From Thermoplasmata archaeon (GTDB lineage: Archaea > Thermoplasmatota > DTKX01 > JAHFTX01), in assembly GCA_023265395.1 (NCBI GenBank), contig JAHFTX010000001.1, positions 65,897-129,896 on the forward strand: a stretch of 64,000 nt of DNA. Direction: 5' to 3'. The notes under the pieces are model-generated. The model was not told the DNA's origin. It saw only the letters and a list, made by a program, of their open reading frames with translations, and searched no databases. How positions within the stretch are numbered: the stretch's first letter is position 1; the number at the start of each line of letters is the position of its first letter. Below, piece by piece: positions 8,402 through 42,120 of the stretch. The translations under genes and the position numbers were made by a program.

Positions 8402-8638
8402 CTATCCCTCCACCACGACTCGGAAGGCGACAGATCGGCCCGAGGTCTCGCTTTCCCGGATGACCCGAACGATTCGTCCCTGCTCGATGATTCCGTGTTC
8501 GACCTCGAGAGCACGAATGCACGGGTCCGATCGGAGGATCTTGGGCAATTGGCTCTTGTCAACCTTGTAGGCGCTCAAGAGTTCGTTCTCCTCGTCCTCG
8601 CTGAGCAGCTCGTGCTCGGGTACGAGCATATGATCCAT
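8402..8638 (-). CDS. rpoH: DNA-directed RNA polymerase subunit H (Rpb5-like)
   Basis: 78 aa from internal ATG at 8638: MDHMLVPEHELLSEDEENELLSAYKVDKSQLPKILRSDPCIRALEVEHGIIEQGRIVRVIRESETSGRSVAFRVV. The LVPEH...LPKI...DP signature is typical of RpoH. The track ORF is extended to 8761 and would overlap the tRNA, so the shorter start is preferred. Confidence 0.85.
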   Translation of the reverse strand: MDHMLVPEHELLSEDEENELLSAYKVDKSQLPKILRSDPCIRALEVEHGIIEQGRIVRVIRESETSGRSVAFRVVVEG

Positions 8639-8709
8639 CAAGCGGAAGGTCACGGGTCTACCTCTGGCGCCTTTGACCGCCACGGGGTTGACGGAGGTGC
8701 CGCTCTCGA

Positions 8710-8870
8710 CGGGCCTGAAGGGATTCGAACCCTTGACTCTCTGGTTTCTTACGCTCTCCATTGGAGGGCGATAAAAGCCAGATGCTCTATCTAGGGAAGC
8801 TCAGTCGGAGACCGTGCGTCGCGCGGTCTCGTCCCGACCAGTCCGTCCTACCTAGCTGAGCTACAGGCCC
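8710..8870 (-). tRNA. tRNA-Lys (anticodon TTT) carrying two introns: a ~59-nt D-loop intron and a ~26-nt intron in the anticodon loop at position 37/38
   Basis: Minus-strand read: GGGCCTG TA GCTCAGCTAGGTAG [GACGGACTGGTCGGGACGAGACCGCGCGACGCACGGTCTCCGACTGAGCTTCCCTAGAT] AGAGC A TCTGG CTTTTA [TCGCCCTCCAATGGAGAGCGTAAGAA] A CCAGA GAGTC AAGGG TTCGAAT CCCTT CAGGCCC G. Perfect 7-bp acceptor stem, 5-bp anticodon stem (TCTGG/CCAGA), 5-bp T stem with GTTCGAATC loop, discriminator G. Exons sum to 76 nt. Intron boundaries are ambiguous by a few nt because of the CTAG repeats. Confidence 0.75.
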
Positions 8871-9051
8871 GGGAGGATTTCTCATAGCGGCATTCTCCAC
8901 CAACCGACTATTCGGCGGCGTATTTGGGGCGCGGCAAATCTTGCCTACGGTATTTGAACGTGACTGGGATGGTTTAAATAGGGTGCCCAAAAGGGTCTCT
9001 CGTCGGAGGGTGCTTGCACCCTGTCGGAGCCGGGGACGAGTGCGAGACGGG

Positions 9052-17276: not shown

Positions 17277-17561
17277 GTGCACCATCCCGGTCGGGGGGGA
17301 GATGGTTCCTTGGCGCTTCGTCTGACGGTCAAGGATGCTGAGACGGGCAACCGCATCGAGATGGAACTGCAGGCGGAGAACACCGTCGATGAGGCAATCG
17401 AGAGCGCCTGCAGTTATTGGAGCAAGCGGCAAGGTGCTTTCGTCCTCAAGCAAGGCTCCACCATCTTGCGTGGGGGCGCGACCCTTCAGGGCAGTCACAT
17501 CGGAGAGCACACCATGCTCGAGCTGATTCCAGACCCACAGGGGGGTGCTCCTCTTGCCTAG
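17277..17561 (+). CDS. Ubiquitin-like small protein (beta-grasp) with C-terminal Gly-Gly followed by a 4-residue tail (pro-protein form)
   Basis: About 80-94 aa; ...LRLTVKDAETGNRIEMELQAENTVDEAIESACSYWSKRQGAFVLKQGSTILRGGATLQGSHIGEHTMLELIPDPQGG-APLA*. Start is non-ATG (GTG 17277 or TTG 17310, each preceded by a G-run). Overlaps the following E2-like gene by 8-17 nt. Confidence 0.6.
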   Translation: MHHPGRGGDGSLALRLTVKDAETGNRIEMELQAENTVDEAIESACSYWSKRQGAFVLKQGSTILRGGATLQGSHIGEHTMLELIPDPQGGAPLA

Positions 17562-18054
17562 GCTACCCGAGGACATCGTTCGTCAGCGGGTCGTCAATGA
17601 GTTGCGCGCGTGTCTGGATTCCTCCCGGCACACGATTAGGCTCGAAGAGGGGGCCCTCGAGAAGTTCCCAAACCGGGTCTGGATCGAGCTTGTTGGCTGT
17701 CCCGCGATGGTGCGCAGGGGAGACCGGGTCGAGACCTCGAGCGAACATCGCTTCCTGCTCGAGGTTCCGCGGGATTACCCCTACGAGCGTCCGACGGTCA
17801 TCTGGGCAACGGACATCTTCCACCCCAACATCATGCTCCCCAGCGAGGGAGGGTTCGTCTGCACCGGACTCCTGGAAGGGTGGACATCCCGCAGCACCTT
17901 GCTCGGATTCCTCCAGGGCCTGGAGGCGCTGCTGGCCAACCCCAATGCGGATAGCCCGTACGGAACCGCCAGTTGTACTTCGGCTGCCCAATACCTCAAT
18001 GCTCAACGAGCGACACCAGGGAGGACCCCTCAACTCTCTCGGACCTCCGGATGA
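17545..18054 (+). CDS. Ubiquitin-conjugating enzyme (E2/UBC-fold)-like protein
   Basis: 169 aa; ...DYPYERPTVIWATDIFHPNIMLPSEGGFVCTGLLEGWTSRSTLLGFLQGLEALLANPNADSP reproduces the UBC core: HPN motif, catalytic Cys 10 residues downstream, conserved Trp, LL..PN..P helix. GTG or TTG start. Confidence 0.75.
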   Translation: MLLLPRLPEDIVRQRVVNELRACLDSSRHTIRLEEGALEKFPNRVWIELVGCPAMVRRGDRVETSSEHRFLLEVPRDYPYERPTVIWATDIFHPNIMLPSEGGFVCTGLLEGWTSRSTLLGFLQGLEALLANPNADSPYGTASCTSAAQYLNAQRATPGRTPQLSRTSG

Positions 18055-37113: not shown

Positions 37114-38082
37114 CTAGCTGTCGCGCAGGTGGCGCAACAGGTCGCGCACGAACACGGGGACCATCTTCCGGCGATAGTGCGGTGGGAAGCTGGTGTTCCG
37201 GTAGGGTCGGGCTCGCTCGAAGGAGGCAGCAGCGAGTTCCTCGATGGCCTGGTCCGAGAGCGGTCCGCCGACATAGGGCTTGGTGACCGAGTCGAGGGAT
37301 CGCGGGGCTTGCTCGAGCGCGTTGAGGACGATCCGCAGGCGGGAGAGTGCCCCATCGACGATCTGGATGCTGATGGCAACGCCCAACTCGGGGAAATCCC
37401 ATGACCCTCGCAGACGCAGCTTGCGGTACCCCGTCCTCCAGGTCGGTGCGCACTCGGGCAGGCGCACGCCGATGAGCAGCTCCCCTGGGGTCCGGGCATG
37501 GCGTCGGATACCGTCGAAGAGGTAGAGCTCCTGCAGGGGGACCTCTCGCCCAGCCTGGGGGCCCAGCAGCTGGGCGGTGGCGTCGAGCGCGCACAGGGTC
37601 CCGGCCATGTCGCTACTGAAGGTGGCATAACAGAGTTCTTGCTGAGGCACGACGTGGCACCGGTCCCCCTCGGCCTTCATGCACGGCTCCCACGACCGCC
37701 GCCAGTGTTCACTCTGATTGAAGTAGAAGCAGCGGTTCTCCAACATCAGGTTGCCACCGAGCGTGCCCGATGCGCGAAGCAGCACCGATGCGACCTGGCG
37801 GGCAGTTGCCGGGATCACCGGCAGGCGAGCCTGCAGCTCGGCTGAACCTTCGAGCTCGCGCAGGGTGACCATCGCCCCGATGTGGGTGGGGGTGAGGTCC
37901 CGCAGACCCTCGACGCGGTGGAGGCTGATGACATGGGGCTTGGCATTGAGCCGCCACTTGTAATTGGGGAGCAGGTCCGTGCCACCGGCGAGCCAGTCTG
38001 CCTCACCCGGATGCTGCGCAAAGGTCGCCACGGCCTCGTCGATGGTTAGGGGCTGGTGCAGGACGAAGGGCGGGAGGTTCAT
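37114..38082 (-). CDS. Molybdenum hydroxylase FAD-binding subunit (CoxM/XdhB/CutM family)
   Basis: 322 aa; FAD-binding LAGGTDLLP motif and CO-dehydrogenase flavoprotein C-terminal domain. Overlaps the coxL stop by 4 nt. Confidence 0.85.
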   Translation of the reverse strand: MNLPPFVLHQPLTIDEAVATFAQHPGEADWLAGGTDLLPNYKWRLNAKPHVISLHRVEGLRDLTPTHIGAMVTLRELEGSAELQARLPVIPATARQVASVLLRASGTLGGNLMLENRCFYFNQSEHWRRSWEPCMKAEGDRCHVVPQQELCYATFSSDMAGTLCALDATAQLLGPQAGREVPLQELYLFDGIRRHARTPGELLIGVRLPECAPTWRTGYRKLRLRGSWDFPELGVAISIQIVDGALSRLRIVLNALEQAPRSLDSVTKPYVGGPLSDQAIEELAAASFERARPYRNTSFPPHYRRKMVPVFVRDLLRHLRDS

Positions 38083-40505
38083 CGTTGATTCCGGGAGAGA
38101 GCGGGGCCCGGCTCGTCGGTCGCGCCCCCGGCGACGTAGCCGCGCTTGGTGCGGCCCGTGGCGGTCGAACCCTGCTTCGACGACGTGGCAGTCGCGTCCG
38201 CGGCCCCTTGCTCCTCGATGGCCTTGAGGAGCCGGTCAGGGGTGATGGGGAGGTCGAAGACGCGGACACCCACCGCGTCGAAGATCGCGTTGCCGACGGC
38301 GGGGAGGATTGGCAGGAGCGGTCCCTCCCCTGCCTCCTTGGCCCCAAAGGGGCCCTCTGGGTCGTCGCTCTCGACGATGAACACCTCGACGTCGGGCATC
38401 TCGAAGGGCGTGGGGATCTTGTAGTCGAGCAGTGAGGGGTTGAGCAGCTGGCCCTTGTGGTAGCGCATCCCTTCGCTGAGGACCTGTCCCAGGCCCATAT
38501 GGATGGATCCTTCAATCTGGCCCTCGACCGCCAGAGGATTGAGGGCCTTCCCACAGTCGTGGGCCGCCCAGACCTTGTCACAATGCACGAACCCGCTCTG
38601 TGGTTCGACGCGCACATGGGCGACATAGGCCGAGAAGCTGTACGCAGGGGCGAGCCCCGCAGCGGCGCCCTTGAAGCTCCCGCCCATCGGCGGTGAACGG
38701 TAGCACCCCTTCGCCACCAACGCGCCGCGATCGGCGATCGCCTCATGGAGCACGCGCATGTACGGGACCTGCACCGCGGGCCGTGAACGACAGTGGGCCG
38801 TGCCATCCTCGAGGGTGAAGAGCTCTGCGGCGTACCCCGTCAGCCGAGCCGCCGCGGCCGTCAGCTCGTCGCGGACCTGCTCGGCAGCCCTGCGGGCGGC
38901 ATTCCCCATCATGAAGGTCACGCGGCTGCTGTAGCTGCCAAGGTCGACGGGCGCAAGGTCGGTGTCCTGCGCCTTGACGTGGATCATGGACGTGGGGAGT
39001 CCGAGCACCTCGGCGACCACCTGCGCGGCGACGGTGTCGCTCCCCTGCCCGATCTCTGCCGCACCGGTGTGGACCGTCACGCCCCCATCCATGTCGATCT
39101 TGATGTGGACGGTGCTCTGCGGGAAGCGCGCCGGGTCCCAATGGATGGGGAGCGCAGAACCGCTGATGTAGAAGCCACAGCCGATCCCCAATCCCTCGCC
39201 GTAGGGCAAGTTGCCGTGGCGGCTATCCCAGTCCGATGCCTTCCGGACGACCTCAAGGCACTCGGCGATCCCGTTGGAGGTGATCCGGAAGTGGTTGACG
39301 GTGTCGGTGTAGGGGGGGATGAGATTGCGGAGGCGCAGCTGTATGGGGTCGATCCCCAGTTCGTTGGCGATCATGTCGACCAGCGTTTCCGCCGCGAAAC
39401 GACTGTTGACGGCCCCGTGGCCGCGCATGGCGCCGCTGGGGGGTTTGTTGGTGAAGACCCGACGGCCCTTGTAGCGGAAGTTGGGGATATCATAGGGGGC
39501 GACCGACAGCACCCCGTTGTAATAGGTGCTGATGACCCCAAAGCTCGACCACGCTCCGCCATCGATGAGCGCCTCGATGTCCAGCCCGGTCAGCTTGCCA
39601 TCCTCGCTAGCGGTCATCTCCATGCGCGTCGATGTCGGGTGCCGGCCGTGGTTGGTCAGGAACACCTCCTCGCGGTCGAAGACGAGCTTGACGGGCCGGC
39701 CCGTGCGCATCGAGAGGATTGCGGCTGCCATCTCATGGGGGAAGGGGTCGCTCTTGCCCCCGAAGCCCCCGCCCACCATCGGCTTGACGACCCGGATACG
39801 GTGCATCTGGATGCCCAGCACCTCGGAGAGCGCCCGGTGGACGTAATGGGGGACTTGGGTGGCTGTCCAGACCGTCAGCCGCCCGTCGACCTCGTAGCGG
39901 GCCACGACCGCATGCGGTTCGGTGAAGCCGTGAGTCACACCCTGGAAGGTGAACCGTCCGCGTGCGGTGATGGCAGCGGACCGCTTCGCCTGCTCGATAT
40001 CGCCGAAGTCTTGGTCCACCATCCGGTGGATGTTGGTCTTCCCGATTCCGAGGGGATGGATCTTCTCTGGGACCTCCTCGAGGGATTCCTCGGGTTTGTG
40101 ATACGCGGGCAGAGGTTCGTACGCGACCTTGACCTTGGCCAGGGCCTCCTCGACAGCATAGAGGTCGCTCCCGGCGATGGCACAGACGACATCGCCGACG
40201 TAGACGACCTTCTCGGTCGCCAACGCGGTCTCGTCCTTGGAGATTGGGATGACCCCGAACTTGTTGGGGTATTCTGCGCCCGTGATGACGGCTGCGACCC
40301 CCGGGACTTCGATTGCCTCCGTGGTATCGATGGAGATGATGCGCGCATGGTGCTGGGTCGAGCGCAGGATCCGCGCGACGAGCATGTTGGGCAGGTAGAT
40401 GTCTTCTGTGTACACCCCGCTCCCGGTGACCTTGCGGCGGGCATCGACCAGGGGCATCCGTTTCCCCACCACGGAGCGAGGGTGATGGGCGCCGTGGCGG
40501 CTCAT
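38079..40505 (-). CDS. Molybdenum hydroxylase large (molybdopterin-binding) subunit (xanthine dehydrogenase/aldehyde oxidase/CoxL family)
   Basis: About 808 aa from ATG 40505 (MSRHGAHHPRSVVGKRMPLVDARRKVTGSGVYTEDI...). Aldehyde oxidase/XDH a/b-hammerhead and Mo-pterin binding domains (GGGFGGK, RGHGAVNS). No CODH form I/II active-site loop (no AYRCSFR/AYRGAGR). The track start 40982 is an off-frame leader overlapping coxS. Confidence 0.85.
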   Translation of the reverse strand: MSRHGAHHPRSVVGKRMPLVDARRKVTGSGVYTEDIYLPNMLVARILRSTQHHARIISIDTTEAIEVPGVAAVITGAEYPNKFGVIPISKDETALATEKVVYVGDVVCAIAGSDLYAVEEALAKVKVAYEPLPAYHKPEESLEEVPEKIHPLGIGKTNIHRMVDQDFGDIEQAKRSAAITARGRFTFQGVTHGFTEPHAVVARYEVDGRLTVWTATQVPHYVHRALSEVLGIQMHRIRVVKPMVGGGFGGKSDPFPHEMAAAILSMRTGRPVKLVFDREEVFLTNHGRHPTSTRMEMTASEDGKLTGLDIEALIDGGAWSSFGVISTYYNGVLSVAPYDIPNFRYKGRRVFTNKPPSGAMRGHGAVNSRFAAETLVDMIANELGIDPIQLRLRNLIPPYTDTVNHFRITSNGIAECLEVVRKASDWDSRHGNLPYGEGLGIGCGFYISGSALPIHWDPARFPQSTVHIKIDMDGGVTVHTGAAEIGQGSDTVAAQVVAEVLGLPTSMIHVKAQDTDLAPVDLGSYSSRVTFMMGNAARRAAEQVRDELTAAAARLTGYAAELFTLEDGTAHCRSRPAVQVPYMRVLHEAIADRGALVAKGCYRSPPMGGSFKGAAAGLAPAYSFSAYVAHVRVEPQSGFVHCDKVWAAHDCGKALNPLAVEGQIEGSIHMGLGQVLSEGMRYHKGQLLNPSLLDYKIPTPFEMPDVEVFIVESDDPEGPFGAKEAGEGPLLPILPAVGNAIFDAVGVRVFDLPITPDRLLKAIEEQGAADATATSSKQGSTATGRTKRGYVAGGATDEPGPALSRNQR

Positions 40506-41176
40506 CCCTTTCCCTCCGGGTGCAGCTGCTGCAGGCGCGCCAGGTCGTGGGTCCGTGGGTCCGTACGCGTCGCAGGGGGTAACTCGCCGATGAGGTGACG
40601 ATGGTCCACATCGAGGGGCTGACGGACACCGCCCTCGCGCAGGACCTTGGCCGCCTGGTGGACGGCCTCGTAGATCTTGATGTAGCCCGTACAGCGACAG
40701 AGGTTGCCCCCCAGGGCCTCGTGTACCTGCTCGTCGGTCGGGTCGGGGCAGGATTCGAGGAAGGCACTGACCGCCATGATGAATCCGGGGGTGCAGAACC
40801 CACACTGACTCCCACCACAGCTGGCGAAGGCCTCCTGGACCGGATGGAGCCCATCGCCGTTGGCCATCCCCTCGATGGTGGTCACCTGCCGACCTGCGAC
40901 CTGCGCCGCCAAGGTCAGGCAGCTGAGCACCGCCACGCCTTCGACCTGCACGGTGCAACAGCCACAGGTGCCCAGGTCGCACCCACGCTTGGTCCCGGTC
41001 AGATGCAGTTGGTCTCGCAGGACATCGAGCAGGGTGGCGTAGGGACGGATGAGCAGTGCGTGCTCGTCTCCGTTGATGTTCAGGCGAAGCGGGAAGGAGG
41101 GTTGGGACTGCGGCATCGTTGTAGCGGCAGCATCTTGGCGTATCGCCCCGACCGGTCCCTTGTGCGGTGATGTCAT
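40502..41176 (-). CDS. Molybdenum hydroxylase (2Fe-2S)-binding small subunit (CoxS/XdhC-small/CutS family)
   Basis: 224 aa from ATG 41176, which forms an ATGA overlap with the xdhC stop. Plant-type ferredoxin cluster CDLGTCGCCTV and second cluster CGFCTPGF...CRCTGY. An alternative start at 41116 (MPQSQPSFPLRLNINGDEHA) is possible. Stop abuts the coxL start. Confidence 0.85.
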   Translation of the reverse strand: MTSPHKGPVGAIRQDAAATTMPQSQPSFPLRLNINGDEHALLIRPYATLLDVLRDQLHLTGTKRGCDLGTCGCCTVQVEGVAVLSCLTLAAQVAGRQVTTIEGMANGDGLHPVQEAFASCGGSQCGFCTPGFIMAVSAFLESCPDPTDEQVHEALGGNLCRCTGYIKIYEAVHQAAKVLREGGVRQPLDVDHRHLIGELPPATRTDPRTHDLARLQQLHPEGKG

Positions 41177-42120
41177 GGGTCCTCTTGCACCAGGTGTGGC
41201 GCGAGGTCCGTCCAGGGAATCACGTTCGAGGCCGTACCCTCGGCGGTCCCTCCGCTGGCGCCTCGAACTGCCGCGCGCGACTGCCGTCGGTCCTGCTCCC
41301 AGGCGCCCGCAGAGGCCGCCAAGAGCGCGGCCGTGGGACCGAGCCGGTCGGAGGCGATGATCTGGCTGACGATCGAGATAGCGATCTCTGGGACGGAGTT
41401 TGCCCCTATGCTCAGGCCCACGGGGCAGTGTACCCCTTCCAACCGCTCCGGCGGGTGGCCGTTGGCACGGAGGATCTTGCACATCGCGGTCCACTTGGTC
41501 CGGCTGCCGATGACGCCGATGATCCCCGGGAAGCGTTCCAGCAGCACATCGAGCGCCGCGACATCAACGTGGTAGGAGTAGCCGAGCAGCAGGGCGTCAC
41601 TGAAGCCCCGCAGCTCCCTGGCGCTCAGGGTGCGCAGTGCCGCGGCAGGCTCCGACGTCATCAGGACTTGGGCCTTGGGAAAGCGCTCCGCGGAGGCGAA
41701 CTCGGGCCGATCGTCGATGACACCGTAGCCGAGGCCCAGCAGGTCGCACTGGTCGGCGACCGCACGAGCGACGTGACCGCCACCGATCATGAGGAGCCGC
41801 GGGGGAGGCCGCAGGTACTCGATCACGACGGTGACCGAACCGCCGCACAGGCTGTCGAGGCCACCCTCCTTCCAACGTGAGAGGTCGAATCGCTCGGACC
41901 GTGATGTGTGGGTGGAGAGGACTTCACGCGCATGCGCCTTGACGATCTCCTCGAGCCCAGCCCCGCCGATGGTCCCCTTGGTCGAGCCATCCTCAAGGAC
42001 GAGCATCTTCGCCCCCTGTTTGCCCGGGACGGACCCTTCTACCCGCAGAACCGTCGCCATCGCCAGGGGCTGCCCATGGGAGAGCAACTGGGCGGCCTGG
42101 GCAAGGAGCGTCGCAGTCAT
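41173..42120 (-). CDS. XdhC/CoxI-family molybdenum cofactor insertion chaperone
   Basis: 315 aa; XdhC_CoxI N-domain (ATVLRVEGSVPGKQGAKMLV) and Rossmann-like C-domain (LLMIGGGHVARAVA). Confidence 0.75.
   Translation of the reverse strand: MTATLLAQAAQLLSHGQPLAMATVLRVEGSVPGKQGAKMLVLEDGSTKGTIGGAGLEEIVKAHAREVLSTHTSRSERFDLSRWKEGGLDSLCGGSVTVVIEYLRPPPRLLMIGGGHVARAVADQCDLLGLGYGVIDDRPEFASAERFPKAQVLMTSEPAAALRTLSARELRGFSDALLLGYSYHVDVAALDVLLERFPGIIGVIGSRTKWTAMCKILRANGHPPERLEGVHCPVGLSIGANSVPEIAISIVSQIIASDRLGPTAALLAASAGAWEQDRRQSRAAVRGASGGTAEGTASNVIPWTDLAPHLVQEDP

Follow-up and report, generated by a model that had tools for sequence, protein, structure and literature searches.

The minus strand of a 64-kb window (this term designates the whole stretch of DNA analysed, from contig JAHFTX010000001.1 of assembly GCA_023265395.1) carries at 8870..8710 what is most probably, with a likelihood that we put at about 0.9 from the sequence and its relatives, a tRNA-Lys(UUU) gene that is functional in its host, an uncultured Thermoplasmata archaeon, and that is interrupted by two protein-spliced introns of the bulge-helix-bulge (BHB) type. 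One of them is located in the D-loop and the other at the canonical position 37/38 of the anticodon loop. This kind of gene is already known, and taken by itself the copy in the window adds just one more ordinary case to a well-established phenomenon. It rises only slightly above routine, through the picture found across the class, in which the gene holds from zero to three introns, and through the presence of a relaxed splicing motif in a group thought to hold a narrow endonuclease only.

The minus strand of 8710-8870 reads GGGCCUG UA GCUC AGCUAGGU(61 nt)A GAGC A UCUGG CUUUUA(26 nt)A CCAGA GAGUC AAGGG UUCGAAU CCCUU CAGGCCC G, so that the gene limits given in an earlier note, written from the letters of this DNA, are exact. 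The discriminator G73 stands at 8710 and CCA is not gene-encoded. In silico splicing of the window gene yields a 74-nucleotide (nt) tRNA that ARAGORN calls tRNA-Lys(ttt) with a perfect cloverleaf. All 21 stem pairs are standard and are distributed over stems of 7 base pairs (bp; acceptor), 4 bp (D), 5 bp (anticodon) and 5 bp (T). The conserved nucleotides of tRNAs are intact as well, namely U8, A14, G18 and G19, U33, the T-loop UUCGAAU and G73, and the anticodon UUU is found between U33 and A37. The identity and the cloverleaf that the earlier note had proposed after removal of two segments are thereby borne out by ARAGORN on the spliced forms, in agreement with the comparative data. The spliced exons match an intron-less orthologue from a related locus (L058) at 70 of 74 positions, and this orthologue reaches 74.2 bits against the Rfam tRNA model (gathering score 29); Rfam covariance scores were obtained for it and for the unspliced window gene, the tool being unable to score a spliced sequence.

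The 161-nt precursor was also folded without constraint. In its minimum free energy (MFE) structure all four tRNA stems (acceptor, D, anticodon, T) are retained and both inserts stand out as side arms, with an energy of -69.7 kcal/mol (z = -3.4) that none of 200 shuffled sequences equalled. An exhaustive BHB scan of the same 161 nt returned many chance 4-bp matches, the cloverleaf-compatible ones being the two junction motifs only. BHB-like structures, which the earlier note had asked to be looked for, are thus found at both junctions, in a relaxed form in the D-loop and in a near-canonical one at 37/38.

Further evidence comes from orthologues. The comparison set was made of the closest relative, of 80 Thermoplasmata rpoB loci, most of which contain the tRNA gene, and of five extra contigs, and 71 genes including that of the window were parsed. 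In about 70 related loci the tRNA-Lys gene is syntenic and lies just upstream of rpoH. Introns in the 71 genes are confined to three sites (20/21, 37/38 and 59/60) and number from zero to three per gene. The most frequent arrangement combines D-loop and T-loop introns (27 genes), followed by genes without intron (16), with introns at all three sites (12), with D-loop and anticodon introns as in the window (8, the window included), with a D-loop intron only (4) and with a T-loop intron only (4). The relaxed D-loop intron is consequently kept in 51 of the 71 orthologous genes. D-loop and T-loop introns occur together in the Methanomassiliicoccus MAGs (metagenome-assembled genomes) L028 and L029, for example, all three introns occur in L086, and CP070732 and CP070751 are among the MAGs with a D-loop intron. 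The 16 intron-less genes are 73-74 nt long. Exons align without gaps and reach 93% mean column identity over 43 distinct spliced sequences, whereas introns are free to vary in sequence and in length, from 24 to 62 nt for the D-loop intron.

Covariation points in the same direction. In the cloverleaf, all 903 cells examined over the 43 distinct spliced sequences are paired (100%) and seven pairs have changed on both sides; none of 500 shuffles reached the observed covariation score and slid controls left at most 54% of the cells paired. In parallel, the core of the D-loop BHB, taken in a 61-nt register over 31 distinct sequences, shows 96% of its cells paired and compensatory changes in 8 of 13 pairs, including three of the four central-helix pairs and all five inner-helix pairs, as compared with at most 47% of cells paired in slid controls. 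The central helix occurs as CUAG/CUAG, CCAG/CUGG, CCCG/CGGG and GUAG/CUAC (exon/intron), the 3' end of the intron tracking the exonic D-loop. The closest relative, L001, whose RpoH is 95% identical, possesses both introns with diverged interiors, and a U27-A43 pair is replaced there by C27-G43 in a compensatory manner.

The D-loop intron quite probably extends over 61 nt (8849..8789, splicing at U20|A21), which corrects the 59 nt counted in the earlier note; the note's recognition of a non-canonical D-loop insert is supported by the BHB motif and by the orthologues, whose 9-nt D-loops, together with covariation, favour the longer form. In the 61-nt register the mature D-loop has 9 nt, AGCUAGGUA, exactly as in intron-less orthologues, and the motif comprises a central helix CUAG/CUAG, the bulges GU|A and AU|A and an inner helix GGA/UCC. 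The interval 8788-8848 would give the same spliced product as 8789-8849. The same gene could instead lose a 59-nt intron (8848..8790) by cuts after A22 and A81 in gene positions, leaving a 76-nt tRNA with an 11-nt D-loop, AGCUAGGUAUA. A BHB also forms in that register, with a 4-bp central helix UAGG/CCUA, two 3-nt bulges and an inner helix of G.U plus A-U. Under constraint it folds with a similar energy (-66.3 kcal/mol), its 76-nt product is also taken for a tRNA-Lys by ARAGORN, and the pairs are 96.5% paired over the orthologues, where the distinguishing pair G19-C is GC in 28 cases and GU in 3; in L043, L048 and L050, four central pairs out of four are obtained only with 59 nt. Against this, all 16 intron-less orthologues have a D-loop of 9 nt (once 8) ending in GGUA, and none has 11. 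The two nucleotides that the shorter intron would add to the exons vary between close relatives (UA, AA, UAA-type) in the midst of exons that are 93% conserved. Moreover, its inner helix is always 1 bp shorter and in the window amounts to the G.U and A-U pairs only. The 61-nt register gains two further compensatory pairs: the first central pair changes from CG to GC and the first inner one from GC to AU. A 59-nt intron is therefore considered unlikely.

With the favoured 61-nt intron, the 5' bulge (GU|A, 8851-8849) directly follows the CUAG 5' strand, counts 3 nt and is clean. The triplet with the 3' splice site (AU|A, 8790-8788) faces A14 and G15, which creates a 2x3 internal loop where a clean bulge would be found in a strict motif. 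This holds for all orthologues with a D-loop intron, in which the triplet lies opposite unpaired A14 and G15 and the D-stem begins only beyond. As no outer helix can abut the 3' splice site beside the universally conserved A14 and G15, the intron belongs to the relaxed HBh' class and not to the strict hBHBh' one. It displays the 4-bp exon-intron central helix, the 3-nt bulge with the 5' splice site and the adjacent intron helix h' of the former, its second splice site being located in a disrupted bulge.

The body of the D-loop intron contains the GAGACCG...CGGUCUC hairpin described in the earlier note, at gene positions 41-47 and 57-63 (window 8830-8824 and 8814-8808). Only L001, the closest relative, shares a conserved interior with the window gene. 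A C/D-box guide RNA was considered and rejected: CUGA is present, there is no C box, and the interior is not conserved beyond L001. A separate function for this intron RNA is not indicated. Two further features of the window intron are not conserved in L001. Its CUGAGCU (8798-8804) is perfectly complementary to AGCUCAG of exon 1 (A9-G15, 8856-8862, minus strand), and the resulting 7-bp helix would compete with the D-stem. Its 3' end also mimics a D-arm, GCUU CCCUAGAUA GAGC, which is the arm aligned in a partial Rfam match to the unspliced gene.

The second insert, CUUUUA(26 nt)A CCAGA, is placed at 37/38 by direct reading and by the CUUUUAA loop of the intron-less orthologues, as the earlier note had it. 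Its motif is a near-canonical hBHBh', in which the 5-bp anticodon stem serves as outer helix, with UA|U and AA|A as bulges and a 3-bp inner helix, CGC/GCG. The anticodon intron of 17 relatives forms an hBHBh' and in 12 of these 17 the central helix is a full 4-bp CUUU/RAAG. The canonical 37/38 introns of the Marck and Grosjean classification, such as that of Haloferax volcanii tRNA-Trp, share the site and the anticodon stem as outer helix with intron 2 of the window, and in both cases nt 32-35 pair with the 3' end of the intron, with two 3-nt bulges and an inner helix. The window gene departs from them by one U.U mismatch in its central helix (CUUU/UAAG), which thus contains 3 bp. Unlike tRNA-Trp introns, intron 2 of the window shows on direct reading neither a C/D-box guide nor an RUGAUGA box.

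A third intron occupies the T-loop of the tRNA-Lys gene in relatives, at 59/60, for example in L007 (3418-3586), L008, L013, L018, L020-L024, L061 and L086 (835-1011). Its motif is a strict hBHBh' with the T-stem as outer helix, a UUCG/intron CGRA helix and the bulges AA|N and AN|U.

Several points weigh against a functional gene with two spliced introns. Neither default ARAGORN nor Rfam at its gathering threshold finds a tRNA in the whole window, a result that is expected for a two-intron gene; at a relaxed threshold Rfam returns only a partial match of 21.9 bits, which extends from the pseudo D-arm of intron 1 as far as the T-arm and leaves 27 nt of the anticodon loop as a gap. In the window gene, no clean bulge holds the 3' splice site of the D-loop intron, the inner helix beside this BHB has only 3 bp and the central helix of the anticodon intron bears the U.U mismatch. 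The 59- and 61-nt registers both base-pair and fold energies do not separate them. Finally, the only characterised EndA (archaeal splicing endonuclease) of the Thermoplasmata, that of Thermoplasma acidophilum, is an alpha'2 enzyme listed as having narrow specificity (PMC6379350), and the alpha'2 EndA of Archaeoglobus fulgidus was inefficient in vitro on the analogous D-loop intron of Methanopyrus kandleri (PMC5829648).

A decaying tRNA pseudogene or tRNA-like remnant, with inserts that are never removed and a fortuitous cloverleaf, would agree with the silence of standard detectors and with BHB motifs whose 3-bp inner helix and U.U mismatch make them weaker in the window than those of many relatives. 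It is opposed by the 21 standard stem pairs and intact conserved nucleotides of the spliced form, by synteny and by selection, both purifying and compensatory, on the gene in about 70 genomes, and by intron ends that covary with the exon sequence, which is sensible only if the BHB is used. The conservation and covariation of the spliced gene exclude chance and make a pseudogene very unlikely.

Other gene models have next to no credit: a tRNA-Leu(aag) with a single 84-nt intron is reported by intron-enabled ARAGORN (-i) on the unspliced sequence and a tRNA built on the internal GCUU...GAGC arm is used by the 21.9-bit Rfam alignment, yet the former has only two Watson-Crick pairs plus one wobble in its D-stem and a bulge in its anticodon stem, places the intron at 36/37 and lacks the long variable arm that tRNA-Leu needs, the latter lacks an acceptor stem and stays below the gathering score, and both are incompatible with intron-less orthologues that equal exons 1, 2 and 3 joined together. 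This flawed tRNA-Leu was all that ARAGORN -i offered as a single-intron solution, the kind of competitor that the earlier note had named as a possible refutation. The same program also placed the anticodon intron one register off, with anticodon UUA, which neither the geometry of the BHB nor the CUUUUAA loop seen in intron-less orthologues allows. Self-splicing introns of group I or II, whose ribozyme core takes up hundreds of nucleotides, were also discarded; the inserts measure just 61 and 26 nt and no Rfam intron match was found.

The nearest known counterpart of the two-intron gene is the pre-tRNA-Glu of M. kandleri. It is likewise euryarchaeal, has exactly two introns, and combines an HBh'-type D-loop intron directly 5' of A21 (20b/21) with a canonical BHB intron at 37/38; its mature form was seen by RNA-seq (PMC5829648). 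In both genes the fixed A14 and R15 of the D-loop preclude a clean outer helix. The differences reside in the isoacceptor (Lys and not Glu), in the class (Thermoplasmata and not Methanopyri) and in the conservation here of the D-loop intron at one orthologous locus across the whole class. Both introns in pre-tRNA-Glu from M. kandleri were excised in vitro by the broad (alpha-beta)2 enzyme of Aeropyrum pernix (PMC5829648).

Multi-intron tRNAs are also found in Thermoproteales, Thaumarchaeota and ARMAN-2 (Sugahara/Fujishima surveys; PMC8450103). As here, they contain up to three short BHB introns, placed at non-canonical sites including the D-loop and 59/60, with relaxed motifs and genes that standard detectors overlook. 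What is proper to these groups is that many tRNA genes are disrupted, in correlation with a broad-specificity EndA that has a specific loop, the CSL in the (alpha-beta)2 type and the ASL in the epsilon2 type. The earlier note had described multiple and non-canonical introns as characteristic of a few archaeal lineages; the host of the present gene is a member of the Thermoplasmata and not of a classic intron-rich group. Non-canonical introns of this class are catalogued already: the tRNAscan-SE 2.0 survey counted six of them and one two-intron gene in three Methanomassiliicoccales genomes (PMC8450103, supplementary Table S7). Among 144 Euryarchaeota the same survey, of 2021, listed no tRNA gene with three introns (PMC8450103), compared with 12 three-intron loci here. 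No paper describing multi-intron tRNAs in Thermoplasmata or Methanomassiliicoccales was found, the counts being given in the supplementary table only.

What the data show is the division into exons and introns, the BHB pairings (in intron 1, the CUAG at its 3' end with C16-G18 of the D-loop, as the 4-bp central helix) and the way in which these are conserved and covary. As to actual cleavage, the exact junctions, the order of intron removal, the type of enzyme and the promoter, we infer rather than observe. A TATA-like box about 105 nt upstream would probably drive transcription of the precursor. By analogy with established archaeal tRNA splicing, EndA would cleave in the bulges, at four positions, and the three exons would be joined by a ligase of the RtcB type. 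End processing and CCA addition would then lead to a 74-nt tRNA with a standard cloverleaf.

There is a tension between this scheme and the enzyme known from the class. The earlier note supposed that such splicing depends on an endonuclease of relaxed specificity. The euryarchaeal group that contains this lineage has been reported with alpha'2 EndA only (PMC5829648). Among 20 mid-size open reading frames (ORFs) of the window, Pfam detected no EndA (PF01974/PF02778), and tblastn with the EndA of Methanocaldococcus jannaschii and A. fulgidus, run on the window and on related loci totalling about 0.9 Mb, gave no match. An HBh' D-loop intron is kept in 51 of 71 genes of a class whose only characterised enzyme is a narrow alpha'2. 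One tentative suggestion, which we regard as doubtful for now, is that a variant EndA or a cofactor outside the four-type scheme and its specific-loop explanation allows these Thermoplasmata to deal with relaxed motifs. Were it true, the gene would represent a natural series in which to date the gain and loss of introns and to test the co-evolution of tRNA introns and endonuclease in Euryarchaeota.

The coordinates of the gene, of its parts and of its neighbours are collected in Table 1.

Table 1. Features of the tRNA-Lys(UUU) locus in window coordinates, with the basis of each assignment
Feature	Position	Strand	Basis or remark
Complete tRNA-Lys(UUU) gene (predicted), 161 nt, three exons and two introns	8710..8870	-	sequence read; ARAGORN on spliced product; precursor MFE
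Exon 1: acceptor 5' strand GGGCCUG, U8 A9, D-stem 5' strand GCUC, D-loop A14-U20 (AGCUAGGU)	8850..8870	-	(near-)identical in 70 orthologues
Central helix H, 5' strand: exon C16 U17 A17a G18 (CUAG), pairs with 8791-8794	8852..8855	-	covaries in orthologues
D-loop intron, 61 nt (favoured register), U20/A21	8789..8849	-	BHB scan over orthologues, covariation, intron-less D-loops
Intron body; inner helix h' GGA (8848-8846)/UCC (8797-8795) closes a long irregular hairpin with GAGACCG and CGGUCUC	8795..8848	-	MFE and centroid folds
Central helix H, 3' strand: intron CUAG	8791..8794	-	pairs with exon CUAG
Exon 2: A21, D-stem 3' strand GAGC, A26, anticodon stem 5' strand UCUGG, C32 U33 U34 U35 U36 A37	8772..8788	-	
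Canonical anticodon-loop intron, 26 nt, 37/38	8746..8771	-	BHB read; relatives with same intron
Exon 3: A38, anticodon stem 3' strand CCAGA, variable loop GAGUC, T-arm AAGGG UUCGAAU CCCUU, acceptor 3' strand CAGGCCC, G73	8710..8745	-	
rpoH (RNA polymerase subunit H/Rpb5 C-terminal domain)	8402..8653	-	Pfam PF01191
TATA-like box ATTTAAA (candidate)	8973..8979	-	103-109 nt upstream of tRNA 5' end

The tRNA-Lys gene is followed by rpoH, an unsplit rpoB and rpoA'. For rpoH, a start at GTG 8653 (83 amino acids, aa) or at ATG 8638 (78 aa) would fall 56 or 71 nt, respectively, beyond the 3' end of the tRNA. A longer ORF of 119 aa (8402..8761, minus strand) overlaps the 3' part of the tRNA by 52 nt, and it is this form, running into the tRNA, that the gene caller of the source assembly annotated as rpoH (ENA ERZ27297570). 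The shorter start preferred in the earlier note is upheld by this overlap, by the Rpb5_C domain (PF01191), which covers residues 4-80 of the 83-aa protein (4e-25), and by the single 95%-identical RpoH homologue retrieved (P0001), which begins at an equivalent short start (the position of GTG 8653, or the equivalent ATG). An exact-sequence lookup of the 78-aa form gave no match.

For the tRNA, the ATTTAAA box is a promoter candidate; it might also serve the downstream rpoH operon. The box and the GTTCAAATACC block that follows it are common to the window and L001 (region 8871-9051, minus strand). In other relatives a TATA-like box is found about 50 nt upstream of the tRNA; the position of about 105 nt in the window would imply an unusually long 5' leader of about 80 nt. 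No AT-rich promoter-like element was seen between the tRNA and rpoH, so that co-transcription of the tRNA with the polymerase operon is possible.

The window's RpoB is at most 74% identical to that of species-representative genomes, all of which are MAGs belonging to Thermoplasmata or related to Methanomassiliicoccales, and 76-80% identical to that of a few metagenome contigs. The GC content is 60-68%. Scans of metagenomes by DNA pattern for close relatives or spliced copies returned no match. One locus of the set, L035 (CAVCVB010000018.1), bears the title 'Firmicutes bacterium CAG:194' and contains an archaeal rpoB that is 63% identical to the window's, together with a tRNA-Lys that does not differ from the one in Methanomethylophilaceae MAGs; this bin is evidently contaminated or mislabelled.

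For annotation, a gene that is invisible to default ARAGORN and Rfam means that genomes of this lineage will seem devoid of tRNA-Lys(UUU) and endowed with an over-extended rpoH. Moreover, synteny with the RNA polymerase operon anchors this one tRNA-Lys gene, and its introns, from none to three, fall at fixed sites, which makes it a clean system for intron gain and loss. It also bears on the view that euryarchaea with an alpha'2 endonuclease tolerate strict motifs only.

Two other regions of the window deserve mention. On the plus strand, a 169-aa ORF (17545-18054) matches the Pfam family UQ_con (ubiquitin-conjugating enzyme E2) at 1.3e-12 and is overlapped by a 94-aa ORF directly upstream; the whole (17277-18054) may represent a eukaryote-like ubiquitin-type cassette in a Thermoplasmata genome. 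On the minus strand, 37114-42120 encodes a flavoprotein of the CO/xanthine dehydrogenase type (FAD_binding_5, CO_deh_flav_C) and an XdhC accessory protein, adjoining a 967-aa ORF, and this cluster is presumably a molybdenum hydroxylase operon.

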